A stretch of 64,000 nucleotides of DNA, taken from NCBI GenBank assembly GCA_000004695.1, contig CM000151.3, positions 4,576,001 to 4,640,000 of the forward strand, in the 5' to 3' direction. The notes beneath the pieces are model-generated. The model was not told where the DNA came from, did no database searches, and saw nothing but the letters and a program-made list of their open reading frames with translations. How positions within the stretch are numbered: position 1 is the stretch's first letter; each line of letters begins with the position of its first letter. Origin of the DNA: Dictyostelium discoideum. Lineage: Eukaryota. Of the stretch, positions 5,583 through 63,295 are shown in pieces. The position numbers were made by a program, and so were the translations under genes.

Positions 5583-6700
5583 TTAATTTAATGAAAGTTT
5601 AATAAATGAACAAAGAATGTTTGGTAAACTTGAAACTTTATCAATTTTAAAATTTGATAATTTAATTAAATTATTCCATTCATTTAAAGTTCTTTCTTTA
5701 CCACCATTTAAAATATTAATTGTATCTATTTAAAATTTAAATTAAAAAATATAATAATTAATAATAATAATTAAAAATAATTAAATTAAATTTAATTTCA
5801 AAAGATACATACGATATTCAATTGAAATTGGAATTGATTTTTTATTTTTATAAATTATATGATCAAATATATAAATACAAACTTCATTTTGATATGAAGA
5901 TTTAATTGATTTATAAATTTTATTTAAAATTTCTAATACTTGATTATCGCTAAACATATGGAATATATATTTAACTAAATAACAATTGCCAATTGGAAAT
6001 GTTTCATCAGTGAAAAAGTTACCCATTATTTCAAAATAACGATTATCTTTATAATTTTTTTCATTATTTTCAATTACTTCTTTTAAATCATAATTAATAC
6101 CTTTTTCAATGATTGAATTGTTTAAATGATATTTATCCAATATTTTCTTAATAGATTCACCTTGAGAACCACCCAAATCAACAATTGTTTTAAAATTACT
6201 AAAATCAACAATTTCTAAAATTGAATCAATTTGAGTTCTAGTGTATTCAGTCAATGTATTGTGAAAATATTTTTTAAGATTTTTTTCTTTATCAATGAAA
6301 TCAAAACCATCATTATAACCACTATTAAAAGTGCCCATTGCTTTTCCAGTTTTAAGACTTTCTTCAATATGTTTAAAATATGGTAATAATGTAACTTGAA
6401 AATATGAATCATTTACCCATGGATACTTATCTGTATCATTAATTAATGTTTCAGAAATTTCAGTATTTGAAAATAGTCTATCAATTTCTTCATCTTCTTT
6501 AAAAATACCCATAGTAGATAATGTTCTCAATAAAACATATAATCCATGCTCATTATATCCATTACATTCTTAATTGTTTAATACTTTTTGAACCATTTTT
6601 TAATTTATTTGGAATTTCTAATTCTAAAATAACTTTTAATGAGTATGATTTTATATAACCAGTTGCAATATCATATATAAAATTTTTAATTTGAATATTT
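5583..6700 (-). CDS. Class I SAM-dependent O-methyltransferase (COMT-like, plant-type). Core exon 6530..5813, last exon 5725..5583. N-terminal segment about 6700..6560 is in another frame.
   Basis: DLGGSQG SAM motif I, the dimerisation-domain motif LYVLLRTLSTMGIF, and C-terminal NGGKERTLNEWNNL (OMT motif GGKERT). GTATGT donor after ...SIEY. The upstream segment MENIQIKNFIYDIATGYIKSYSLKVILELEIPNKLKNGSKSIKQLRM* is in a different frame with no plausible intron between. Confidence 0.7.
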
Positions 6701-6760
6701 TCCATTATTATTATTATTTATTATTACTATTTCTTTTAATTTTTTTTTTTTAAATAATCC

Positions 6761-6965: not shown

Positions 6966-7260
6966 CAGTTAATTTCCGACCTATTACATCTCCAATTGGT
7001 TGTCAAAGTAATTGGAATTTCATCAAATTCCTATAATGGTATATTTTACTTATTAAATGATAATAAATAGGCAATTTTTATAATTAATAAATGAGGTATG
7101 TCATTATCTTTAATATTATTATTGTTTCAGATTTATGTGTAAACAAATGAGTGAATTTTAAATTTTCAGAATTTAAACTATTTACAAGAATATTATTAAA
7201 ATAATTATCTATTATTCTTTATTTTGAGTAAATAAATTCAATAATCCTAATAAAAATTAC

Positions 7261-7390
7261 CATTCAAAAATTGTAAACCAAAACCATGTAATAATTCACC
7301 CATTGCATCATTTCTAGTAACAGCACCAATACTTTCTATATGACAAAAATTAATAGCTAAAGTAGGTAATCCTATTCTTCCATATTTGAA
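7261..7390 (-). pseudogene. Isolated fragment of a polyketide synthase ketoreductase (KR) domain C-terminus.
   Basis: Minus-strand translation YGRIGLPTLAINFCHIESIGAVTRNDAMGELLHGFGLQFLNGNFY* is paralogous to the KR segment at 16880-17030 (RRSIGLPALAINFGHIGSIGVVTRNDAISELLHGFGLQSMNGN). It has no upstream or downstream PKS context and ends in a stop. Confidence 0.5.
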
Positions 7391-7589: not shown

Positions 7590-8764
7590 TTAAGACAATG
7601 AAAAAGAATTTTTAAAATCAGAATTTAAATCATCTGTATTATAAAATGTTAATGGTATTGTTTTAACCACTTCAATACTTTCATTTTTAAATGACTCTTT
7701 TTCTTTTTCTTTTTGTTCCTCTTCTTTTTTTTCTTCTTTTTTTTCTTCCTCTTTTTCTTTTTCTTCATGATCTTGGGCTTTGGATGTTAAATGAAAATGA
7801 TAATCTGGTGATGGAATTAAGTCAACATTATCATTACCACTTAAAAGTCTGATTAATTTGAGGAATGGTTTTTCAAGATTAAAATTTGTTCTAACCGATA
7901 GTTCAAAATATGAAATATTCTTTTTACGATGAAATATAATCTGACTTGGGTTAATTCTTTTACCCATTGATTCTACTTTATTACCAACTAAAACCATTGG
8001 AACCACCTTACCTGTTATTCTTAATAATTCATTAAACCAATCGTTAACGCTTCTATATGATTCTCTTGAACAAACATCAAACATTATAATTGCACATTCC
8101 GCTCCAGTCCTATTACAATAATATTAATTAATATTAATATTAATACAATAAATGTTATTTTTTTATATTTATAGTGAATGGAGAGTGTGAGAGTGAGAGA
8201 GAGAGAGAGTGAGTGAGGTATACTTACATATAATCATCTCTCATAGCTCCAGGTAATCTAGTAAAAGCCATATCCCAAATACTGAAATTAACATCACCAA
8301 TAGTTGTTTTAAAATTAAATTTATGAACACTACAACCAAAAGTTGCTAAATAAAAATAAATAAAAATAAAAATATTGGTTATTATTATTTTGGACTGATA
8401 GTTTAATTTAAATTAAAGAGAATAATAAACCTACCAACATATTGAGTTTCAAATTCACCTGTTAAAAGTCTATTTATATAGGTGGACTAATAATAATATG
8501 ATATTAGTATATTTAAATATATTTGAAAAAGTTTATATATATAAAACCTACTTTACCAACTCCACCATCTCCAATTAATACTAATTTAATTTCTTTAGTA
8601 TTGTCAAATTTTTTAACTACTGGTAATGATGGTTTATTTTTTGATGATGATAATCCCAATGAAAATTGCGCACTTGATGGCGATGCTGCTGTTGTTGTTT
8701 TTGGTGTTCCAAAATCAAATGGTGGTGCTGTTGGTGGTGGTCCAAATTCAAATAGTGATGCTGT

Positions 8765-8861
<97 letters not shown>

Positions 8862-10068
8862 CCCAATCCAAACGGTGAACTTAATGGTGATGGTGCTGTT
8901 GGTGAACCCGATCCAAATGATGGCGTACTTGGTGGTACCAATCCAAATAATTCTTGTTCTATTTTTGTAATTTGTCCATATCTAAATGGTGGTGCTGTTG
9001 ATGGTGATGCTGTTGTTGTTGTTGTTGCTACTGTGTTTGATGATCCCGATTCAAATGATGGTGCTGTTGGTGATCCCGATCCAAATGATGGCGTACTTGG
9101 TGGTACCAATCCAAATAATTCCTGTTCTATTTTTGTAATTGGTCTATATCTAACTGGTGGTGCTGTTGGTGTTGATGCTGTTGTTGATGCTGTTGTTGTT
9201 GTTGTTGTTGTTGCTACTGTGTTTGATGATCCACCAAATCCCGATCCAAATGATGGTGCTGTTGGTGATCCCGATCCAAATGATGGCGTACTTGGTGGTC
9301 CAAATCTAAATAATTCTTCTTCTATTTTTGTAATTGATCCATATCCAAATGGTGATGCTGTTGATGTTGATGCTGTTGTTGTTGTCGTTGTTGCTGCTAC
9401 TGTGTTTGATGATCCACCAAATCCTAATGAAAATGCATCTCCTGATGGTAAAAGTGGAAGAGGTGAAACAAAACGAACGTTATCATTACCACTTAATATT
9501 TTGATTAATTGAATGAATGGTGTTTCAAATTTATAATTTGATTTACTTGAAATTTCACAATAGTGAATATTCTTACTACGATGAAAATTAATTTCCTTTG
9601 CTTTAACTTTACGATCTTTGATATCAACTTTATTACCAACTAAAATAATTGGTATATTATTACCTAATTCCTTTGTTAATTCATTAAACCAACTTGGTAC
9701 ATTCCTATATGAAACTCTTGAAGAAACATCAAACATAATAATTGCACATTGACTTCCAACACTATTATAATATATATATAATTAAATATTTTAATATATA
9801 TATATATATATATATACTTTTAATTATGAATTTTTTAAAATAAACTTACTAATATAAATGTCTAAATACTTCAAATTTTTCATCACCACAAGTATCCCAA
9901 ATATCAAAATTAACATTGCCGATATTAGTGTAAAGAATTAGATTACTTAGTTCTACTCCAACCGTAGCTATATTTTTATTTTATTTTTTTTATGTTTTTA
10001 TAATTAATAAAAATAAAAAAAAAGTTAACTATTTTCATAATAATAGTAATAATAATAATAATAATAAC

Positions 10069-10127
<59 letters not shown>

Positions 10128-10673
10128 TGATTTTAATGATACTTACGAATATGGCTTTTTTGAAATTCGCCTATTATATGACGTTTTAAAAATGTAGTCT
10201 AATTAATTCATGATAATAATAATAATAATTAATAATTAATAATTAAAAATGTAAAAATAATAATAAACAATTACTTTACCTTACCAACACCACTATCACC
10301 AACTAATATTAATTTGATGGGTCCATTTTTCTGTGTATTTTTTATGTTTTATGTGTATGTTAGTATATATATTTTTTTTTTTTTTATATTTAATGAAATA
10401 AATAATTTATTTTTAAAAATATATATATATATATATATATATAATTTACAATATCAATTGGTTTAATATTTTGATAAGCTTTTTGTTCAATTGGACTATG
10501 ATCTTCATCCTCAATTGGTATTTGTTCTCCTATTGCTTTTTCATAAGATGAAAGTAGCTCCGAATCAATATCACTAATATTAAATGTTGACTAAAAGTAA
10601 GAGAGTATTTTTAAAAAAAAAAAAAAAAAATTAATAAAAAATATTAATAAAAAATATTTTAAAATGGTAATAT

Positions 10674-10716
<43 letters not shown>

Positions 10717-10725
10717 TGTTACCAT
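7590..10725 (-). CDS. Tandem Ran-like GTPase. Two Ran-like domains joined by an FG/Ser/Thr-repeat linker in one reading frame. Exons 10725..10723 (ATG only), 10590..10450, 10320..10270, 10198..10147, 9967..9850, 9761..8552, 8486..8435, 8345..8228, 8109..7590.
   Basis: Domain 1: [29 protein letters not shown] / PTVGVELSNLILYTNIGNVNFDIWDTCGDEKFEVFRHLYY / [68 protein letters not shown]. This is a strong match to Ran ([84 protein letters not shown]). Domain 2: KLVLIGDGGVGK / STYINRLLTGEFETQYV / ATFGCSVHKFNFKTTIGDVNFSIWDMAFTRLPGAMRDDYM / [46 protein letters not shown].... All introns are GT(A/G)(A/G)GT...AG with consistent phases. ORF 8513..9736 is open from domain 1 through the linker into the domain-2 P-loop, and the linker contains no Met. 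Confidence 0.7.
8760..9420. repeat. Coding tandem repeats: (GAT)n of about 110 bp (poly-Ser of about 37 residues on the minus strand) plus three copies of a 180-bp unit.
   Basis: (gatgat)n at 8760-8870. Near-identical 180-bp units start about 8881, 9060 and 9240 (ccgatccaaatgatggcgtacttggtggtaccaatccaaataattc...). Each encodes PPSTPSFGSGSPTAPSFGSG..TTTTT..ITKIEQELFGLV. Confidence 0.85.
10040..10128. repeat. (TAA)n microsatellite inside an intron of the Ran-like gene.
   Basis: Direct observation of an (ataata)n run. Confidence 0.9.
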
Positions 10726-15176: not shown

Positions 15177-15667
15177 ATTAAAAATAAATAAAAAATTGTA
15201 CTATATTAAATGATTTACCAAAATAGAACTCAAATACTCAAACATGGTTATTTGTAACAAAATAATAAAAAAAAAAAAAATTAAAATAAATAAAATAAAA
15301 TTAAATTAAATAAAATTTTTAAATAAAAAAACTAATATTAAAAAATAAAAAAATTATTTGTTCAAAAAAAAATGTTTTGTTGACTTAATTTCATCACCAG
15401 ATTCTCAATTTAATTAACATCATCATCTTTATTCAAAGCCCAAGGTCATGAAGAAAAAATGAAAAGAAAAAAATGAAGAAAAAAAAAAAAGAAAAAAAAA
15501 AAGAATATTTAAAAAAAAATGAAAATATTTCCATGATTAATACAATACCATTAACATTTTATAATCTAGATGATTTAAAATCAGATTTTAAAAATTCTTT
15601 TTCCTTGTTGTCATAACAAATTAATAATTTTTATAGAAAAGATAATAATAAATAATAAATAATAATA

Positions 15668-15709
<42 letters not shown>

Positions 15710-15963
15710 AAATTAATAGTAATTATAAAATAAAAAATAAATAACATTTAATCTAATTTCAAATACTCATTTTCTAACAAGGAATCTGTGATTTTTATAA
15801 TAGTAAAAAATTAAAATATAATACACAACTGTATATCAACATACACCCTCCCCCTCATATCTCATACGATTATTGAGAATAAGTTGAAATGTATGTAAAT
15901 TTATATATAAATAAATATATATATTTTCAAAATGATATTTTTATTATTTTATTTTGTTTTTTA

Positions 15964-17439
15964 AAAAATAAAATGCAAATGGAGTTTGACAATAAAAGTA
16001 AAAGCAAATATCAAAATGATGTTGCCATTATTGGGTTGGGTTTTAGGTTAACTGGTAACTCAAACTCACCCAAATTATTTTGGTTTGTATTTTACTTTTA
16101 AAAAAACCACACACATATATAAAATATAAAATAATATTAATAATTTGATAATATTATAATCATAGGAATAATTTAATTAATAAATTTGATGGCGTTGTTG
16201 AAATTGATAGATGGAGTAAAAACTATTATTTAAATAATGAAATTAAAAATCATCAAGGTGGTTTAATATCATTAGAAGAACAAATAAAAATGTTTGATCC
16301 ACTTTTCTTTTCAATTCCACCATCTGATGCTGAAACAATTGATCCACAACAAAGACTACTTTTAAAATGTATTTATAATAATTATATATACTTAATGATT
16401 TTTATATAATATATATATATATATATATTAATTATTTTATAATATGATAGGTGTTTGGGAAGGATTTGAAGATGCAAATATTGATCCAATTAAATTACGT
16501 GGTAGTAATACAAGCGTTTACATTGGTTTGTTTATCCACAAATGATTATTTTAATAATTTAAAAAATACAAAGGAAACCTTAACTAATGTATTTGGATCA
16601 TCAGCACACAGTGAATCAAATAGAATTAGTTATTGTTATGATTTTAGAGGTCAATCAATTCACGCCAAAGAGCTTTTTTGAAAAGAAGAATAAAAAACAT
16701 TAAAAACCAAAAAAACTTGAAAAGCATAAAAACTTTAGGTTGTATTTATCTTCATCAACTATCATTAAAATATAATTGGAAATTAAAGAATTTTATAATT
16801 CCATCATCTATATCATCTCTATTTGGTGTTCAAAATCAATGTGGTTATGTTAGTGCTAATTGTATTAGATAGTTTTGCAAAGTATAGAAGATCAATTGGT
16901 TTACCTGCTTTGGCTATTAATTTTGGTCATATTGGAAGTATTGGTGTAGTTACTCGAAATGATGCAATCAGTGAATTATTGCATGGCTTTGGTTTGCAAT
17001 CTATGAATGGTAATATTTTGTTAGGTTCATCAGATTTATTTAGTCAAAATAAAGAAATAATTGATAATGATTATAGTAATATTATTGTAAGCAGTTTAAA
17101 TTTTGAAAATTTAAAATTCAGTCATTTGTTTACAAATAAATCTGCTTTTAAACTTAATTCAATATCAAATAATAATAATATCTATGGTAATAACAATAAT
17201 AATAATAATAGTAAGGATATATATCTCAATTGGTAATTTCAAAAATTGACTATTTATTATCAATTAATTAATAAAATATTAATTCAAATATACCATTATC
17301 AGAATTTGGCGGAGATAGTTCAATAATTACTCAAATTAAAAATTGGTTAGATAAATTTAAAAATAACCACTTTACAATATCTGAAATTCAAAAATATTCA
17401 ATTAATGATATAATTAAAAAATTAATAATTAACAAATAA
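15964..17439 (+). pseudogene. Polyketide synthase remnant. The KS N-terminus (2 small introns) is joined to the KR C-terminus and ACP, with frameshifts and an internal deletion.
   Basis: MQMEFDNKSKSKYQNDVAIIGLGFRLTGNSNSPKLFW | [16 protein letters not shown]...DPQQRLLLK | [26 protein letters not shown] is a typical Dictyostelium PKS KS start. A +1 shift follows (attggtttgtttatcc), then STNDYFNN...NRISYCYDFRGQS, which ends without the DTACSSSL active site. From about 16790 the frame reads GVQNQCGYVSANC (1-nt shift) then LDSFAKYRRSIGLPALAINFGHIGSIGVVTRND.. (KR C-term). At 17290-17439 the frame reads EFGGDSSIITQIKNWLDKF...LIINK* (ACP-like GxDS). Confidence 0.6.
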
Positions 17440-19965: not shown

Positions 19966-20121
19966 ATGATTTCAAGATTAATTAAACAAACAACAAAAGT
20001 TAACCAAATTAGAACATTTTGTTCAATTACTAATGATCCAAAAGGAGATAAAATTAGAGATTTATTAAATACAGCTTTTAAAACCATCAACATTAAATGT
20101 TATAGATATGTCTGGTATGTA

Positions 20122-20161
<40 letters not shown>

Positions 20162-20426
20162 CTCAAAAAATATAATATTAACCTTAAACTAAAAATCCAA
20201 TATTCATAAATCCAATTTCTGACTATTTAATTATTGTTGTTTTTTTTTTTTTTTTGGTTCAATTTATTATGTAGGTGGTTGTGGTTCTATGTATAAAATT
20301 GAAATTGTATCACCAGAATTTAAAGGTAAATCAATGATAAATCAACATAGAAAAGTTAATCAAATTTTAAAAAGTGTCATACCGTCACTCCATGGTTTAA
20401 CTTTAGTTACTAAATCTGATGAATAA
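19966..20426 (+). CDS. BolA3-like protein (mitochondrial Fe-S assembly factor family). Exons 19966..20114, 20275..20426, with an apparent 1-nt frame break near 20095.
   Basis: Exon 2 is [50 protein letters not shown]. The exon 1 end in frame +1 is VIDMSG. Together they give the BOLA3 signature V.D.SGGCG.MY.I.I.SEEFKGK..HR.VN..L...HGL.I.T. The N-terminal 44 aa ([20 protein letters not shown]...[17 protein letters not shown]) look like a mitochondrial presequence plus the BolA helix 1, but sit in frame 0. Intron GTATGT...tag. Confidence 0.65.
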
Positions 20427-31654: not shown

Positions 31655-34600
31655 TTAGCTTCTACTTTGTAATGAATGAATATTATTTTTAAACTTCATT
31701 TCCTTCTTTCTCATTACAAAATGATAGGTAACTGAGGATATTACTACTGCAGCAAATGCGACACTACCCACTACAATACCAGCAATTGCACCACCACTTA
31801 ATCCACTGGATTTTTGAGAACAAATTGAATTTGGTGATGAAGATGAACTTGATGAATGATCTAATAATACTGAGAAATCAGGATCTACTATAACTTCAGA
31901 TTTATACTGTGGTATTATAATACCAATATATGAAGATGAGAATGATTCAGAATTTGATTGAGTTTGATTATTTTCAATAACTCTATTATCGATTGGGGTA
32001 ATTAGTCCATCTGCAATACCTCTTTTTAAGAATCTTGCATACATTGAATGATCTCCAATTTGAATTTTTAAATAATCTTCGTTTGTATTATTTCCAAATT
32101 GTTGAGATGAACAAATATCGTCACTGCTAGATGATTCAAATGTTGCTGACATTAATAATTCTAATTTACTTAATCGATTTCTAAATGGATATGAATTGAT
32201 TGAAATTGTATATTTTGAAGTTGATGGGTTCATTTGTAAATTATTACCAGCGAATGATATATTTGTAGCCTTATCAAACCATTGAATAGTTACATTTGTT
32301 TGTGATATTGTAATGTCATCTCTTGTAATATTAGTTATATACAATGATGTATTATTAGTTAAATCACTGTAAATCCATTTTTCAAAGTAATAGGTATTGA
32401 TTACATTATATTCATAATCGAGTTCTCTTAAAGCTACTAATGATATTAAAGATCTAAATGTAATATCAAGATTCGATGAGGTGGTAGTTGTTCCGTTTGG
32501 TGTTGAAATTTCGGTTGATGGATCGGTTGTATTAATTGATGGTTGTGGTACAATAATAACTTTGGATGTACAGTCAATACCAACCCATGGTGTGAAACAA
32601 ACACAACCCGATGTACTAGTATCACAATAACCTTGATTTGAACCACCACATTCTGGTTTTCCTGGACATTGTGGTCTTTTAGTTGGTGTCGGTGTTGGTG
32701 TTGGTGTTGGTGTTTCAGATGAAGATTCAGATGGTGTTTGAGATGGTGTTTGAGATGGTGTTTCAGTTGGTGTTTCAGTTGGTGTTTCGGTTGGTGTTTG
32801 AGTTGGTGTTTCGGTTGGTGTTTGGGTTGGTGTTTCAGTTGGAGTTTGAGTTGGTGTTTCAGTTGGAGTTTGAGTTGGTGTTTCAGTTGGAGTTTGAGTT
32901 GGTGTTTGAGTTGGTGTTTGAGTTGGTGTTTGAGTTGGTGTTTCAGTTGGTGTTTCAGTTGGTGTTGGTGTTTGAGTTGGGGTTGGTGGATCTGGAATAA
33001 ATAATAATACTTTTTGATATGGATAAATAAAATATTCATTTGAAGATATTGATTTATCATTTTCTAATATAATACTAAAGTTACTACCTTGATCCATTTC
33101 AGAGATACCGCCTAATAAAATAGCAGCACCCCCAACAGTTTTTTTAACTTGTAATGGTTTAGTAGTTGATTTATAATTGAATGTTGCACCAGTAACTGAT
33201 TTAAATCCTTTACCTGTTAACCATAAATCACCACCTAATGTAGAAATTCTATCAGAACCTGTAATAACTGGAACATCGATTGTATATGTTGTATTTATTA
33301 AATATGGGAAACCTAATTGTTTAAAATCATTAGAGCTATAACCACTATAATATCCACCATTATTTACTAAACCATAAACTGATAATAAAATTCCAAATGG
33401 GTAACCATATGCTACTGGTAATGAAATTGAACATTGATATGATTTTGAATTTGAATTGATTATTGTTTCAGATGTAATTTGACATTGAATTGTATTGAAA
33501 TCAGTTGAAGTTAAATAAATTACTGGGTAACTATTATTTTTAACACCAGATGCTAAATTTTCAACCTCTAAATTAAATGAAACAACTCTTTCACTTAAAC
33601 CTACATCAACTACAGTTTTATCACTAGAAAATTTTTTAATTACAACTGGTGTTGGATCACTTACTTCATTTGGACAAGTAACTGATATTTTATTGATTGA
33701 TGGATCATTAAAATAGTACATAAATGGATTATAAAGAGAGTTTAAAATAAATTTATAATCACTAAATAATGAAAATGTTGAATTATTATTTTCAGTATCA
33801 AATAGTAATACATCAGAAATAATATAGTCTTGAGAAATACAAGGAGTTGATAAATTAATACCAACTGTATATACTTGTTCAAATACATCAGTTGTTGGAT
33901 ATAATGTAAAATTATAATTTGAACCATCAATTGCACCTTTAACTACAATATAACCACTTTTAAAACCATTAATTGGATCACTAATTGTTAATTTCCAACC
34001 AATTTCAGTATTAGTTTGAATTGTAACTGGTGATGAAGATGGATACTTTTGAATTCTTTTAAATATTGGACCCATTAAATCAGCATCTTTATTAAACAAT
34101 TTGAATATTAAATTAGTAATTAATTTTTTCAATAAAAATAAATAAATAAAAATTTTAACTTACTTTCTGAAATTACATTAAATGAAGCATTACTACCTAA
34201 TGCACTATTCAATACCCATTGTTTTCTATTAAAAAAGAGGGCATAAGACATTGGACCTTGTCTCGAATTTCTTGGCAAATAAAATTCAACTTGAAACATT
34301 TTAATTGTATCATTCCATTGTGCTGGCCAAGCTTTATCTAGTAATCCTTGAGGATAGATTGGATCATCATTCAAATATTCTTTTATCCATTGTTGATGAT
34401 GAACCAATAGAGATATTGGTGAATTGATATCTAAATTTGACATATTAAAATATAAAATATTACCAGCAACAACATTTGTAACATCCATTGTTTTATAAAA
34501 AATTGAAGCATTTTGAACATTATAAAAATTGAAACCTTTAAAAGCAATTAAAAAAAAGTTAGTTTATATGTAATAAAAAACAATAGTTCATTATAATATT

Positions 34601-37287: not shown

Positions 37288-40015
37288 TTATTTTACTTTT
37301 TCCAATTTATTTGTAATGGATCTATTAAATTTATTTTCTTGATTCCTTTTTACAAAATGAAAGGAAAGTGAGAATATTACTACTGCAGCAAATGTGACAC
37401 TACCTATTACAATACCAGCAATTTCACCACCACTTAATCCACTGGATTTTTTAGAACAAATTGAATTTGGTGATGAAGATGAACTTGATGAATGATCTAA
37501 TAATACTGAGAAATCAGGATCTACTATAACTTTAGATTTATACTGTGGTATTATAATACCAATATATGAAGATGAGAATGATTCAGAATTTGATTGAGTT
37601 TGATTATTTTCAATAACTCTATTATCGATTGGGGTAATTAGTCCATCTGCAATACCTCTTTTTAAGAATCTTGCATACATTGAATGATCTCCAATTTGAA
37701 TTTTTAAATAATCTTCGTTTGTATTATTTCCAAATTGTTGAGATGAACAAATATCGTCACTGCTAGATGATTCAAATGTTGCTGACATTAATAATTCTAA
37801 TTTACTTAATCGATTTCTAAATGGATATGAATTGATTGAAATTGTATATTTTGAAGTTGATGGGTTCATTTGTAAATTATTACCAGCGAATGATATATTT
37901 GTAGCCTTATCAAACCATTGAATAGTTACATTTGTTTGTGATATTGTAATGTCATCTCTTGTAATATTAGTTATATACATAGATGTATTATTAGTTAAAT
38001 CACTGTAAATCCATTTTTCAAAGTAATAGGTATTGATTACATTATATTCATAATCGAGTTCTCTTAAAGCTACTAATGATATTAAAGATCTAAATGTAAT
38101 ATCAAGATTCGATGAGGTAGTAGTTGTTCCGTTTGGTGTTGAAATTTCGGTTGATGGATCGGTTGTATTAATTGATGGTTGTGGTACAATAATAACTTTG
38201 GATGTACAGTCAATACCAACCCATGGTGTGAAACAAACACAACCCGATGTACTGGTATCACAATAACCTTGATTTGAACCACCACATTCTGGTTTTCCTG
38301 GGCATTGTGGTTTTTTAGTTGGTGTTTGAGTTGGAGTTTGAGTTGGTGTTTGAGATGGTGTTTCAGATGGTGTTTCAATGGGGGTTTCAGATGGTGTTTG
38401 AGTTGGTGTTTCCGTTGGTGTTTGAGATGGTGTTGGAATTGGAGTTGAAGGGTCTGGTGTTACAGTTGGTGTTGGAGTTGGTGATGGAGTTTCTGGTTCA
38501 CGAGTTGGTACATAATTCAATACTTTTTGATATGGATAAATAAAATATTCATTTGAAGATATTGATTTATCATTTTCTAAAATAATACTAAAGTAGGTAC
38601 CTGGATCCATTTCAGTGATACCGCCTAATAAAATAGCAGCACCTCCAATAATTTTGTTAACTTGTAATGGTTTAGTAGTTGATTTATAATTGAATGTTGC
38701 ACCAGTAACTGATTTAAATCCTTTACCTGTTAACCATAAATCACCACCAAATGTTGAAATTCTATCGGAACCTGTAATAACTGGAATATCGATTGTATAG
38801 GTTGTATTAATAAAATATTGGAAACCTAATTTATTAATATCATCAGAGCTATAACCACTGTAGTATCCACCATTATTTACTAAACCATAAACTGACAATA
38901 AAATTCCAAATGGGTAACCGAATGCTACTGGTAATGAAGCTGAACATTGATATGATTTTGATTTTGGTGTTATTATTGTTTCAGATGTAATTTGACATTG
39001 AATTGTATCGAAATCAGTTGCAGTTAAATAAATTACTGGGTAACTATTATTTTTTACACCAGATGCTAAATTTTCAACTTCTAAATAAAATGGAACGATT
39101 CTATAGCTTAAACCTACATCAACTGTTTTATTACCACAAACAAAATTTTTAATTACAACTGGTGTTGGATCATATACCTCATTTGGACAAGTAACTGATA
39201 TTTTATTGATTGATGGATCACCGAGATAATTCATAAATGGATTAAAAAGTGATAATCCTATGAATTTGTCATCATTAAATAATGTAAATGTTGAATTATT
39301 ATTTTCAGTATCAAATAGTAATACATCAGAAATAATATAGTCTTGAGAAATACAAGGAGTTGATAAATTAATACCAACTGTATATACTTGTTCGAATATA
39401 TTATTTGTTGGATTAATAGTAAAATTATAATTTGAACCATCAATTGCACCTTTAACTACAATATAACCACTTTTAAAACCATTAATTGGATCACTAATTG
39501 TTAATTTCCAACCGATCTCAGTATTAGTTTGAGTTATAACTGGTGATGATGATGATGGATACTTTTCAATATTTTTAAATATTGGACCTAGCAAATCCAT
39601 TTTTTCAGAAATTACATTAAATTGAGCATCACTACCAAATGCATTATTTAAAACAAATACATTTCTTTTAAAAAAGAGTGCATACGGTAAATTTCCACTT
39701 TTAGAATTTCTTGGCAAATAAAACTCTGCTTGAAACATTCTAATTGTTTCATTCCATTTTGCTGGCCAAACTTTATGATACAATTCAGATGGAATTGTTT
39801 GGTCTTGGATGGTTTGGAATTTTTGTGTTGATGGTTGGTGGTGAATAAATAAACTCAATGGTGAATCAATATCTATATTTGTCAAATTAAAATAAAGAAT
39901 ATTTCCTGCAACTGAATTTGTTACATTCATTGTTTTAAAAAGTATTGATGCATTTCTAATATCATACATATTGAAACCTATAATTAAAATTATTGTTTTA
40001 ATAATTTAGTTATTT

Positions 40016-55679: not shown

Positions 55680-57744
55680 TTATTTAGTTGGCAATAGTTT
55701 TACATGTTTGATAAAGAAATGTGTGGGAATAGAGTTTATAAAATTTAAACTATCATTATAGATACAAATAAATTCAAATGAAGGTGGCCATATTAAATCT
55801 GGTAATTCATCACAATTATAACCTGTAAAATAAAATGATTTCAAATTAGGTGGTAAGGCATCTCTATCGATAGTTGAATTGAAAAAATCTGAAATTCGTA
55901 ATAAAGTGAGTGATGATGGTAATACATCTCTTTGAATTGGTTGTTTGTAACTTGGTAATTTTAATACCCCTATGGATGATGGTAGATCTCCAACATTTAA
56001 GGGTTGATTAAAATCATAGATTTTTAATTTTTTAAGATTATTTGGTAAGAGACTATCGTTTAATTCGAATTCATCTGAAACTGTTAAAACTAGTTTTGAA
56101 ATAGTAGGTGGGAATTTTACATCTGTTAAATCTATTTGACTTACATTGAGTTTCAACGATGTTAAATTTTTGAAAAAATCTAAAGAGTGTAAATGTGGGT
56201 TCCGAGTAGTGAAATTCATTATTTTTAGTGTTTGAATTGTTTTGGGTAATATTTGAATATCAGAGAATGCGTTCATTGATAAATTTGTAATTGTTGGTGG
56301 AAAGAGAGCTGCATTATCTTTGTTTCTACCAAGATGTAAAGTTTTAATTGAGATTGGTAATGAGTTTGGTTCAAGTTTATGATTGCCCGACTTGAATATC
56401 AATGATGTAACATTGTGTGGAATCATTCCTTTTTCAATGGTCTGATTAAAAAAAGAATCAAACTCTAATGAAGTTGTACCACCTGGTATAGATGTCGAGT
56501 CTAATTTATTAGTACCTCTTTTAGAATCAAAAGAATAATCAAGAGTTGTTACTGATTTTGGTATTGATCCATATAGAATTATTCCTTGATAATTTGGATC
56601 TAATATCAATGAGGTGAGTGATGGTGGTAATTCATCTCTATGAATTGAATGTTGAAATGATTTTCCAAAAGTTAAAGATTTTAATGTTCTTGGTAGCAAT
56701 GGTATACCATTTGTGTCACTTAATGATTGATTAAACTCATCACTAAAATCAATCGATGTTAGACTATTACCAATCATATTACGAGTTAATTGTTGATCAA
56801 AATCAATCAATGTAATGGACTTACATGTATCTGGTATCCAATGGTCTACTAGTATAATATCTGAACAATCCATCTCTATATTTTCCGCAATTTGTGGCAT
56901 TGGATACCAATTTGAGTAACGTTGGTTTTCATATCCATTTAAATCAAATAATCTGATGTTATTAAAATAATTTCTATATTTATATGTTGAAAAATTATTT
57001 ATCCCTATATCAAAGCTATTATTATGATTATTATATATTCTAAGATGAAATAAAATTTGATCCCTAATAACCATATTTCCCCAAATTTTTTTAAATAATA
57101 TATAATTATTATCAATTGTTTGATTTTTTAGTTGATTTGTTCTTATATTATTATTATTAATATCAGGTTGTGATTTTAAAATTAATTGATTTAAATTATT
57201 ATTATTAATGGTAATATGATGATTTAAATTATTTTTAATGATTATAAGTATTGAACAATCGAATGAAATTCTTTTATTTCTATTGTTAATTGTGTCATTA
57301 TTATTATTATCTGTAATTGAATGAGTATATATAATTTCATTATTAGAATTATTGGTTGTAAATGTGTTTTTTAAATTTTGAATATGATTATTTAGTGTTT
57401 GAAATTGTTGATCATTTAATCCTTTTAAATCATTTAAATGCTTTTTTTCATCTTCTTCTTGTCTATATAAATATGTTTTTATAATTAGTATAATAATAAT
57501 AAAAATAATAAAATAAAAAATATAAAATATCAAAGTGTGTTAACGTATACAATTTTTTTTCTTTTTTATTTTGAAGGTTTTCATTATTGTTTTTATAATT
57601 ATTGATACTATTACAATAATCTTGAAGTTGATTGAATGTAATATTTAAACTATTAATTGATAATATTAATAAACAATTTAAAAGCTCTTCATTGTTTTTA
57701 TTATTATAATTATTAATTAAATAAGAGTAAATTATATTATCCAT
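55680..57744 (-). CDS. FNIP-repeat protein, copy 1. Exons 57744..57551, 57472..55680.
   Basis: Repeated FNQ...IP units (FNQSLSDTNGIPLLPRTLKSLTFGKSFQHSIHRDELPPSLTSL; FNQTIEKGMIPHNVTSLIF; FNQPLNVGDLPSSIGVLKL...). Exon 1 is MDNIIYSYLINNYNNKNNEELLNCLLILSINSLNITFNQLQDYCNSINNYKNN...KKL, followed by a GTATAC donor. Confidence 0.75.
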
Positions 57745-61235: not shown

Positions 61236-63295
61236 TTAATAATTTAATTTCCCACGTTTTAATAGTTTTGTATGTTTGATAAAGAAATCTGTGGGAATAG
61301 AGTTTATAAAATTTAAACTATCATTGTAGATATAAACAAATTCGAATGAAGGTGGCCATATTAAATCTGGTAATTCATCACAATTATAACCTGTAAAATA
61401 AAATGATTTCAAATTAGGTGGTAAGGCATCTCTATCGATAGTTGAATCGAAAAAATCAGAAATTCGTAATAAAGTGAGTGATGATGGTAATACATCTTTT
61501 TGAATTGGTTGTTTGTAACTTGGTAATTTTAATACCCCTATAGATGATGGTAGATCTCCAACATTTAAGGGTTGATTAAAACCATAGATTTTTAATTTTT
61601 TAAGATTATTTGGTAAGAGACTATCGTTTAATTCGAATTCATCTGAAACTGTTAAAACTAGTTTTGAAATAGTAGGCGGGAATTTTACATCTGTTAAATC
61701 TATTTGACTTACATTGAGTTTCAACGAAGTTAAATTTTTGAAAAAATATAAAGAGTGTAAATGTGGGTGGGAACGAGTAGTGAAATCCATTATTTTTAGT
61801 GTTTGAATTGTTTTGGGCAATAGAAACACTTCAAGGCATTCATGTATTGATAAATTTGTAATTGTTGGTGGTAATTGAGCTGAATAGTCTTTGTTTCTAC
61901 CAAGATGTAAAGTTTTAATTGAGATTGGTAATGAATCTGGTTCAAGTTTATGATTGCCCGAACCGAATTTCAATGATGTAACATTGTTTGAAATCACTCC
62001 TTTTTCAATGGTCTGATTGAAAAAATAATCAAACTCTAAAGATGTTGTGCCACCTGGTACCGATGTTGAGTCAAATTTACATGTACCATCTTTAGAATCA
62101 AAATAACAATGAAGAGTTGTTACTGACTTTGGTATTGATCCATATAGAATTACTCCTTGATATTTTGGATCCAATAATAATGATGTAAGTGATGGTGGTA
62201 TTTCGTCTCTATGAATTGAATGTTGAAATAGTTTTCCAAAAGTTAAAGATTTTAATGTTCTTGGTAACCATGGTATACCATTTGTATCACTTAAAGATTG
62301 ATTAAATTCATTACCAAAATCAATAGATGTTAGACTATTACCAATGATATTACGGGTTAATTGTTGATCAAAATCTATAAATGTAATGGATTTACATGTA
62401 TCTGGTATCCAGTGTTCTCCAAGTATAATATCTGAACATCTCATCTCTATATTTTCAACAATTTGTGGCATTGGATAACAATTTGAGTTACGTTGGTTTT
62501 TATAGCCATCAGAATCCAATAACTTGACATTATTAAAATAATTTCTATATTTATATGTTGAAATGTTATTTCTCCTTATATCAAAGCTATGATTATGATT
62601 ATTATATATTCTAAGATGAAATAAAATTTGATCCCTAATAATCATATTTCCCCAAAACTTTTTAAATAATATATAATTATTATCAATTGTTTGATTTATT
62701 TGTTGATTTGTTTTAATTTTATTATTAATATCAGATTGTGATTTTAAAATTAATTGATTTATATTATTATTATTAGTGAGATGATTTAAATTATTTTTAA
62801 TGATTATAAGTATTGAACAATCGAATGAAATTCTTTTATTTCTATTGTTAATTGTGTCATTATTATTATTATCTGTAATTGAATGAGTATATATAATTTC
62901 ATTATTAGAATTATTGGTTGTTAATATATTTTTTAAATTTTGAATTTGATTATTTAGTGTTTGAAATTGTTTGTCATTTAATCCTTTTAAATCATTTAAA
63001 TGCTTTTTTTCCTCTTCTTGTCTAAAAATGTTTATAAATTAGTATAATAATATAATAATAAAATATAAAATATAAAATAATCAAAGTGTGTTAATGCATA
63101 CAATTTTTTTATTTTTTTTATTTGAAGGTTTTGATTATTGTTTTTGTAATTATTGATACTATTACAATAATCTTGAAGTTCATTGAATGTAATATTTAAA
63201 TTATTAATTGATAATATTAATAAACAATTTAAAAACTCTTCATTATTTCTATTGTTATAATTATTAATTAAATAAGAGTAAATTATATTATCCAT
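61236..63295 (-). CDS. FNIP-repeat protein, copy 3. Exons 63295..63102, 63021..61236.
   Basis: Exon 1 MDNIIYSYLINNYNNRNNEEFLNCLLILSINNLNITFNELQDYCNSINNYKNNNQNLQIKKIKKL, then a GTATGC donor and ttttag acceptor. Exon 2 is open from 63021 to the stop at 61236 (RQEEEKKHLNDLKGLNDKQFQTLNNQIQNLKNILTTNNSNNEIIY...FNQSLSDTNGIPWLPRTLKSLTFGKLFQHSIHRDEIPPSLTSL...). Confidence 0.75.

Follow-up and report, generated by a model that had tools for sequence, protein, structure and literature searches.

Results

ranB encodes two Ran-like domains joined by an FG-rich linker

The ranB gene of Dictyostelium discoideum is, with good confidence, a single transcription unit of nine exons that encodes one Ran-linker-Ran protein of 754 amino acids (aa): two Ran-like GTPase domains joined by a long linker rich in Phe-Gly (FG) motifs, Ser and Thr. 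The gene lies on the minus strand of the 64,000-nucleotide (nt) stretch of DNA that we analysed (chr2:4,576,001-4,640,000, hereafter the window), at window positions 7590-10725. An original prediction, made from the letters of the window, had proposed one gene with two Ran-like domains and a linker in a single frame. This was borne out: the frame runs through without a stop, and the rebuilt model agrees with the public 754 aa.

The locus is D. discoideum ranB (DDB_G0274943, UniProt Q554Y4), an assignment that is based on chromosome, span and length and not on a residue-by-residue match. The public record places ranB at chr2:4583590-4586725 (PMC6830349, Table S7), the same 3136 bp as our locus, and a separate table of that study gives 754 aa for the product (Q554Y4_DICDI; ranB, DDB0229425), the length of our model. 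The position of the window also agrees with where that study puts DDB_G0274461 (4.509 Mb) and DDB_G0274407 (4.662 Mb), and the window open reading frame (ORF) at 49298-51385 matches the DDB_G0274423 protein exactly. Since span and length are both equal to those of the public record, the gene found here is the already annotated ranB and the Ran-linker-Ran reading is the public gene model, which settles an earlier doubt over annotation. A position of ranB some 650 kb away, argued from the DDB_G numbering, was rejected because DDB_G0274943 is out of the positional series. Thus, the gene is known; the Ran-FG-Ran architecture, the degenerate state of the catalytic motifs and the relatives in Amoebozoa are undescribed in the literature that we searched. 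Papers that name RanB call it merely a Ran homologue or state that it "contains a Ran domain", and RanA and RanB alone are listed for D. discoideum. Literature searches on Ran-FG fusions, tandem Ran and Ran paralogues found nothing relevant.

We rebuilt the nine-exon model by joining ORF 8513..9736 (minus, 407 aa), which we recovered exactly as it had been quoted, to the neighbouring exons at GT..AG borders. Every intron of the model is GT..AG and the phases are consistent, as claimed earlier for nine exons with canonical borders. The coding sequence (CDS) of 2265 nt specifies, in order, an N-terminal extension, Ran-like domain 1, the linker, Ran-like domain 2, a K/E-rich tract and a C-terminal motif (Table 1). 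The second P-loop that had been seen at the end of the long ORF (GDGGVGKS) is present, and exons 7, 8 and 9 complete domain 2 as predicted. The linker, residues 226-505, indeed contains neither a Met nor a stop. In the whole model there is no in-frame ATG between Met130 and Met565; together with the absence of a stop, this leaves a complete domain 2 without a start of its own. Two introns carry simple sequence: a 30-copy ATA microsatellite in intron 4 (10037-10125) and a 39-nt homopolymer run in intron 1 (10677-10715), which is 9 nt shorter in the assembly GCA_054883475.1.

Both domains are Ran-like, and their catalytic motifs are altered

A hidden Markov model search with the Pfam Ras profile (PF00071), proposed beforehand, gave two matches in the conceptual protein (E 1.1e-77). 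Compared with solved structures, domain 1 matched Gsp1/Ran at 4.8e-67 and its best Rab at 5e-27; domain 2 matched Ran/Gsp1 at 6.2e-54 and its best Rab at 1.8e-19. For both domains Rab is thus the next family after Ran/Gsp1, 30-40 orders of magnitude weaker. RanB has the CAIIMFDV core and the FHRKKN and EKPF motifs and is without a C-terminal lipidation motif. ranB descends from Ran. Its two domains share intron positions (exons of 52 nt and 118 nt in both) and are only 44% identical to each other, which makes the duplication an old one.

The G1 P-loop is intact in both domains (GDSGVGKT in domain 1). In domain 1, G3 reads DTCGDE, so that DxxG is kept and Gln69 is replaced by Asp; G4 and G5 read NKVD and SSK. 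The switch II of this domain is altered (EVFRHLYY versus GGLRDGYY in Ran). The corresponding motifs of domain 2, NKVE and SVR, depart from NKxD and SAK. The G3 motifs of the paralogue at a second D. discoideum locus (L001, see below) are DISGNE in domain 1 and DMAGNR in domain 2, and at the G4 position the ranB gene of D. purpureum reads SKTE. The acidic C-terminal DEDDDL tail of Ran, the RanBP1 switch, is absent from both RanB domains: domain 1 continues straight into the FG linker after FVSPLPLLPSG, and domain 2 is followed by the K/E-rich tract and then by the motif ...DDLNSDFKNSFSLS. The post-domain-2 motif IPLTFYNTDDLNSDFKNSFSLS is common to D. purpureum ranB (LPLVIPITFFDPEDLNSDFKKNLNLN). 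A relic copy of the C-terminal motif, 75% identical, lies at 15524-15607 on the plus strand.

We ran AlphaFold2 on the paralogue, and not on the window copy, with a 30-sequence alignment. The two G domains, for which a structure prediction had been suggested, both fold confidently, with a predicted local distance difference test score (pLDDT) mostly of 85-95. The linker of the paralogue (residues 234-431) has a pLDDT <50 and, apart from two short helical turns, no secondary structure. The K/E tract is predicted to form a long helix.

The linker is coding and enriched in FG motifs

Of the 20 Phe residues in the linker, 13 precede a Gly, against 1.85 expected from composition; none of 20000 shuffles reached 13. 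The FG motifs are spaced 4-46 residues apart in a sequence made up to 71% of S/T/P/G/A and with 8% charged residues. In exon 6 the coding frame alone is free of stops, the other two sense frames having 34 and 16. The GC content of the linker is 39%, compared with 27-35% in the other exons, 6-25% in the eight introns and 10% in the 3' flank. Together with the single open frame, this makes the linker coding-like, and neither intron-like nor intergenic. Opposite the linker, a 329-aa antisense ORF (8523-9512, plus; poly-Asp, Val-rich) is a by-product of the codon repeats and no gene.

Part of the linker is repetitive. TRF found 1.8-2.1 copies of the tandem units, with 87-93% match, and a (TCA)35 tract that encodes a poly-Ser run; the number of units differs from the paralogue by in-frame indels. 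When ranB is aligned with the second D. discoideum locus, Phe is conserved in 13 of 15 aligned linker columns. The original prediction had called the linker nucleoporin-like. Composition, motif content and predicted disorder agree with that description; the Pfam Nucleoporin_FG profile does not, as it gives no match (see Discussion).

RanB is expressed with the Ran pathway and is O-fucosylated

RanB protein and mRNA have both been detected in growing cells, and both drop on starvation (protein FC, as reported, -0.81; mRNA logFC -2.07, -2.54 and -2.55 at 4, 5 and 6 h; PMC6830349). ranB is one of six genes in a co-expression cluster that also includes ranA, ranBP1 and two RCC1-domain genes (PMC8923023). 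In slugs, RanB was enriched 25-fold in an anti-fucose-O-Ser pull-down from the wild type versus a spy knockout, and the fucose lectin AAL also captured it, from vegetative cells; in the published list it stands with Nup62-, Nup54- and Nup214-like FG nucleoporins and transportin (PMC11507795). According to the same study, Spy favours Ser/Thr-rich tracts, from which the (TCA)35 poly-Ser run is likely an O-fucosylation substrate. Within the 754-aa model such tracts occur in the linker only. Spy-dependent capture is thus indirect evidence that the linker is present in the mature protein.

A second D. discoideum locus has the same architecture

A further Ran-FG-Ran locus (L001; GCA_054859355.1, JBTAPG010000054.1, 6001-8894) occurs in two D. 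discoideum assemblies other than that of the window; its 683-aa GenBank model (P0001) is named "hypothetical protein". It lies within a segmental duplication that covers a PA14 neighbour gene and a polyketide-synthase (PKS) gene; published D. discoideum small-GTPase inventories contain no locus of the L001 type. L001 has the same nine exons as ranB, including the mini-exon that consists of the ATG alone. The linker exon measures 996 nt at L001 versus 1209 nt in ranB; each length is divisible by three, and the two differ by whole repeat units. Our word-indexed homologue search is lossy, as the domain-1 query missed this 85%-identical paralogue, and matches missing from it were not used as evidence.

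The synonymous divergence (dS) between ranB and L001 is ~0.1, and the ratio of nonsynonymous to synonymous divergence (dN/dS) of domain 2 is 0.28; for the linker a dN/dS >1 is unreliable because the repeat units misalign. L001 keeps DxxG in domain 2 and GALRDGYY in domain 1 and is thus less degenerate than ranB. Among single substitutions in the CDS, 6.5% create a stop (8.3% in the linker), and in a neutral simulation the probability that the ORF stays open after ~88 substitutions was ~0.1-0.5%.

The window also holds relic copies (Table 1). A copy of the ranB 3' end, 75-79% identical, lies upstream of two PKS fragments, the first a KS piece and the second a later one; a third fragment lies just past the ranB stop, on the strand opposite to the former. 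At L001 an intact PKS gene follows the Ran-Ran gene; by comparison, the arrangement in the window resembles a segmental duplication that was inverted or rearranged and whose breakpoint copies have decayed.

Ran-like domains and FG repeats recur together in Amoebozoa

An exhaustive profile search with follow-ups identified further amoebozoan proteins that combine the two elements. In D. firmibasis, RB653_000980 (P0002) has four Ran domains separated by linkers with GLFG/FGFG motifs (SGLFGT and KFGFGST repeats); its linker scores 21.9 bits with the Pfam Nucleoporin_FG profile, below the cut-off of 32.2. The gene (L002, 10001-13327; CM069766.1) is almost intronless and encodes 1076 aa, and each of its four Ran-like domains keeps a Ran-type C-terminal helix and an acidic stretch. 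We rejected it as a ranB orthologue because there is no synteny and gene structure and tail are different. Tieghemostelium lacteum (P0183) has a Ran-like domain and nine FG motifs, seven of them FTFG, in a single uninterrupted exon. The 921-aa GenBank model at this locus (L008, 3001-5944; LODT01000013.1), named "Peptide transporter PepT1", looks like a merger of two genes: one with the Ran-like domain, FxFG repeats and a PAH-like region, whose frame meets a stop after ...EFHQY, and a PTR2 transporter that starts at MESQSYNN. The arrangement is FG-Ran-Ran in Physarum polycephalum transcript_07027, FG-Ran in an Echinamoeba exundans transcript, LRR-Ran-FG-HMG in Pyxidicula operculata transcripts and Ran-(SSLFGNSS)x4-Ran in a JGI contig.

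Because FG flavours and domain orders differ between these sequences, the association is recurrent and not a single accident. The architecture had been called highly unusual; its recurrence across Amoebozoa makes it less singular than was thought. The ranB gene of D. purpureum, directly after GCN1, encodes a single-domain protein of 236 aa. A hidden upstream domain was rejected, as the gene starts 350 bp after GCN1.

Other features of the window

The remaining genes that we noted are listed at the end of Table 1. The O-methyltransferase gene in the neighbourhood of ranB has a 1-nt frame shift between ...IKQLR and ECNGYNEHGLY... and is either a pseudogene or has an unusual intron; the ACTFIT annotation spans the shift with an intron, giving a 331-aa product. 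An Arf-related gene, probably arrB (DDB_G0274445), has a "GYGKNGFGFGFGCGSGSGG" insertion inside its G domain, which the GenBank model drops (182 aa versus 211 aa for the ORF). Two tandem paralogues have DUF7035, DUF7034, DUF7949 and ComC supersandwich domains in common. We also noted two FNIP-repeat genes, the gene for ribosomal protein L8, whose first exon is only 19 nt long (MGRIIR|A), and a BolA-like gene of two exons, probably DDB_G0274439.

Table 1. Positions of ranB parts and of other features in the window
Feature	Position	Strand	Remarks
ranB exons 1-5	10725-10723, 10590-10450, 10330-10280, 10198-10147, 9967-9850	minus	rebuilt model
ranB exons 6-9	9761-8552, 8486-8435, 8345-8228, 8109-7590	minus	rebuilt model
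Exon 1	10723..10725	minus	ATG alone, GT intron directly after; ATG|GT mini-exon also at L001, used in GenBank model P0001
Exon 2	10450..10590	minus	47-aa N-terminal extension (STFNISDIDSELL...KPIDI); helix at residues 7-21 in AlphaFold2 prediction of paralogue
Ran-like domain 1	9452..10330	minus	residues 49-225; exons 3-5 and start of exon 6; 56% identity to human Ran
Linker	8612..9451	minus	residues 226-505, 280 aa; FG/Ser/Thr/Pro-rich
Tandem 168-nt and 195-nt units in linker	8888..9393	minus	56-65 aa units ...SSNTVATTTT..PPFRYGxITKIEQELFGLVPPSTPSFGSGSPTAPSF
(TCA)35 tract, poly-Ser run	8756..8861	minus	TRF
Ran-like domain 2	7830..8611	minus	residues ~506-675; end of exon 6, exons 7-8, start of exon 9; 46% identity to human Ran
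K/E-rich tract HEEKEKEEEKKEEKKEEEQKEKEKE	7701..7775	minus	paralogue equivalent predicted as long helix (residues 629-659)
C-terminal motif VVKTIPLTFYNTDDLNSDFKNSFSLS and stop codon (7590-7592)	7590..7670	minus	conserved
PKS fragment	7126-7387	minus	just past ranB stop
Relic copy of ranB 3' end	15378-15751	plus	
PKS fragments	15939-16660, 16823-17233	plus	
O-methyltransferase gene	5781-6705	minus	
Arf-related gene	2208-2843	minus	
Tandem paralogues	31655-34132, 37288-39969	minus	
FNIP-repeat genes	55680-57533, 61236-62645	minus	
Ribosomal protein L8 gene	17609-19098	minus	
BolA-like gene	19966-20426	plus	

Discussion

Alternative readings of the locus

Not all of our observations favour a single, functional Ran-linker-Ran protein with a nucleoporin-like linker, and those that weigh against it are gathered here with the alternatives that they suggest. 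The 754-aa model has no exact match in a collection of 15 billion proteins; a read-through variant of 537 aa and the 407-aa ORF are likewise without an exact match in the large protein collection. No Logan contigs carry part of the gene other than L003-L005 (last exon), which are unspliced genomic DNA, colinear with the genome, so that nothing about splicing can be drawn from them. In GCA_054883475.1, an assembly with 99.7% identity to the window, the automated GenBank annotation calls two genes at the locus, one of 121 aa (10725-9849) and one of 665 aa (9736-7247), and read-through of the exon 5 donor leads to an immediate TAG. The locus could then give two products, a short N-terminal one that ends in the retained intron 5 and one from Met130, or two Ran-like proteins of which just one contains the linker. 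This is very unlikely. Both automated models cut G domain 1 in half, and the larger one overruns the true stop into the PKS relic at 7126-7387, a typical ab initio artefact; the same pipeline called the second locus as a single 683-aa gene with the equivalent splice, and dictyBase and UniProt give 754 aa. In the linker, moreover, there is neither an in-frame ATG nor a stop, A/T-only runs do not exceed 11-13 nt, and just two AATAAA hexamers occur in exon 6. We read the split annotation as a prediction artefact. An intronic linker, or a model that is itself an artefact of assembly or annotation, might be suspected from the low-complexity sequence and from the antisense ORF, and is effectively refuted: the GC content of the linker is not that of true introns (39% versus 6-25%), openness is confined to one frame, an independent long-read assembly carries the identical sequence down to the poly-Ser length, the annotated 754 aa count the linker in, and a fused Ran-Ran ORF remains even without it. 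The window gene could also be a decaying duplicate, a pseudogene in the making whose ORF is a remnant and whose product has no function. The window copy does show signs of relaxed constraint in domain 1: its dN/dS versus the paralogue is 0.78, and it has 13 derived changes in the window lineage against 4 in L001, radical ones in switch II among them. In domain 2 the G3 motif reads DMAFTR, with Gly and Gln both lost, and the loss of DxxG is found in the window copy only. The neighbourhood is rich in relics (the frameshifted O-methyltransferase gene, the PKS fragments, the duplicated 3' piece of ranB). We nevertheless consider decay unlikely, since all nine exons, sixteen splice sites and 754 codons are intact, which has a probability of 0.1-0.5% under neutrality as far as stops are concerned; the dN/dS of domain 2 argues the same way, as do the regulated mRNA, the detected protein, its co-expression with the Ran pathway and its specific O-fucosylation.

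The main functional rival concerns the linker. RanB may be a genuine but fast-evolving tandem-Ran paralogue whose linker is an ordinary Dictyostelium low-complexity sequence, a passive spacer in which the FG motifs have no nucleoporin-like role; we give this a substantial chance of being right, though one below even. Homopolymer and tandem-repeat expansions are pervasive in the D. discoideum genome, and the (TCA)35 tract and the 168/195-nt repeats bear signs of slippage or unequal crossing-over in recent times. Several of the 13 FG motifs sit in repeat copies and so do not count independently; the charged ITKIEEELF segments are atypical for cohesive FG domains; the Pfam Nucleoporin_FG profile has no match to the linker even at E<=10; and D. 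purpureum ranB has no linker at all. Nor does RanB have a recognisable pore-anchoring domain: a Pfam scan of the protein returned Ras-superfamily and generic P-loop matches alone. On the other side, at least eight independent sequences, drawn from five amoebozoan lineages, have FG-rich segments beside Ran-like domains, and their repeat types differ (FTFG, GLFG, SLFG, PSFG), which argues for a selected association and not for chance. The Phe positions are kept across the two D. discoideum loci while the spacers vary, and RanB was captured together with FG nucleoporins in the O-fucome. Of all the readings considered, one transcription unit that encodes one Ran-linker-Ran protein remains the best explanation.

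Possible function of RanB

RanB would not be an additional Ran of the transport-gradient kind. With the catalytic Gln and the RanBP1-switch tail missing from both domains, it is unlikely to go through the cycle of Ran. Judging from its motifs, domain 1 probably binds guanine nucleotide and hydrolyses it poorly even with a GTPase-activating protein, since the nucleotide-binding motifs are kept and the Gln is lost. Domain 2, in which G3 and G4 are lost, is probably a pseudo-GTPase with the role of a binding module. The linker, with Ser/Thr tracts that Spy would O-fucosylate, may act in the manner of a nucleoporin FG domain and could bind importin-beta-type receptors or NTF2, which the Ran-like domains would recognise as well. 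RanGTP and FG repeats are both ligands of importin-beta-type receptors, as RanGDP and FG repeats are of NTF2; with the two kinds of ligand in one chain, a protein would bind such receptors bivalently or dwell in the FG phase of the pore. RanB might in this way be a "tethered Ran", associated with the pore or with karyopherins, that modulates receptor docking or release. Such a tethered factor is our best guess at a function, and a tentative one. More speculatively still, RanB-type proteins may constitute an undescribed class of nuclear-transport factors, widespread in Amoebozoa, in which GTPase-impaired Ran-like modules are tethered to O-glycosylated FG repeats. Residing in the FG phase of the pore or riding on karyopherins, they might tune the release of cargo or the recycling of receptors through a RanGTP-like (or RanGDP/NTF2-like) binding surface that is local and does not depend on the gradient.

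The interplay between Ran and FG repeats usually runs via transport receptors and RanBD proteins only. An expressed Ran-FG fusion places two ligands of the same karyopherins in one chain, and does so recurrently in several amoebozoan lineages. If RanB acts at the pore, it would provide a genetically tractable system for the coupling of local Ran-like activity and FG interactions, in an organism for which knock-in Nup markers and spy mutants exist. RanB is likewise a ready test case for the evolution of pseudo-GTPases. If RanB is merely a fast-evolving paralogue with a floppy spacer, the finding shrinks to a note on an annotated gene.

Comparison with known systems

According to a recent survey, the Ran family as a rule has no member other than Ran, whose gene is mostly single-copy (PMC13393502). 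Like canonical Ran/Gsp1 proteins (RanA, human RAN), both RanB G domains match Ran/Gsp1 structures first and have a Ran-type P-loop. In contrast, canonical Ran is a single domain of ~215 aa (PMC13393502) and possesses Gln69 and the DEDDDL tail, whereas RanB consists of two domains and a 280-aa FG linker and has lost both of these features.

Closest in architecture are the other amoebozoan Ran-FG proteins, which combine one or more Ran-like domains (in several cases two to four) and FG repeats in one ORF or transcript. They differ in order (FG-Ran, FG-Ran-Ran, Ran-FG, Ran-FG-Ran, or four Ran domains with FG linkers) and in FG flavour; some keep the canonical DTAGQE and an acidic tail, and none is syntenic with ranB. 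Tandem GTPases such as Miro and EngA/Der also have two G domains per chain, one of them often degenerate, but their G domains are of unrelated families, they lack an FG linker, and their cell biology is different.

The linker resembles FG nucleoporins of the Nup62, Nup98 and Nup54 types in being disordered, in its 13 FG motifs, in its Thr/Ser/Pro/Gly-rich spacers and in its low charge. As are the Dictyostelium FG nucleoporins, RanB is modified by a nucleocytoplasmic O-glycosyltransferase (Spy O-fucose), presumably within the linker. Unlike these nucleoporins, RanB has no coiled-coil, beta-propeller or autoproteolytic domain that would anchor it to the pore, and its FG region lies between GTPase domains. 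A coupling of the Ran system and FG repeats in one polypeptide is also seen in Nup358/RanBP2, Nup50/Nup2 and RanBP3/Yrb2. The Pfam scan of RanB gave no RanBD (Ran_BP1) match: these proteins recruit free Ran through RanBD modules, whereas RanB is the Ran fold itself.

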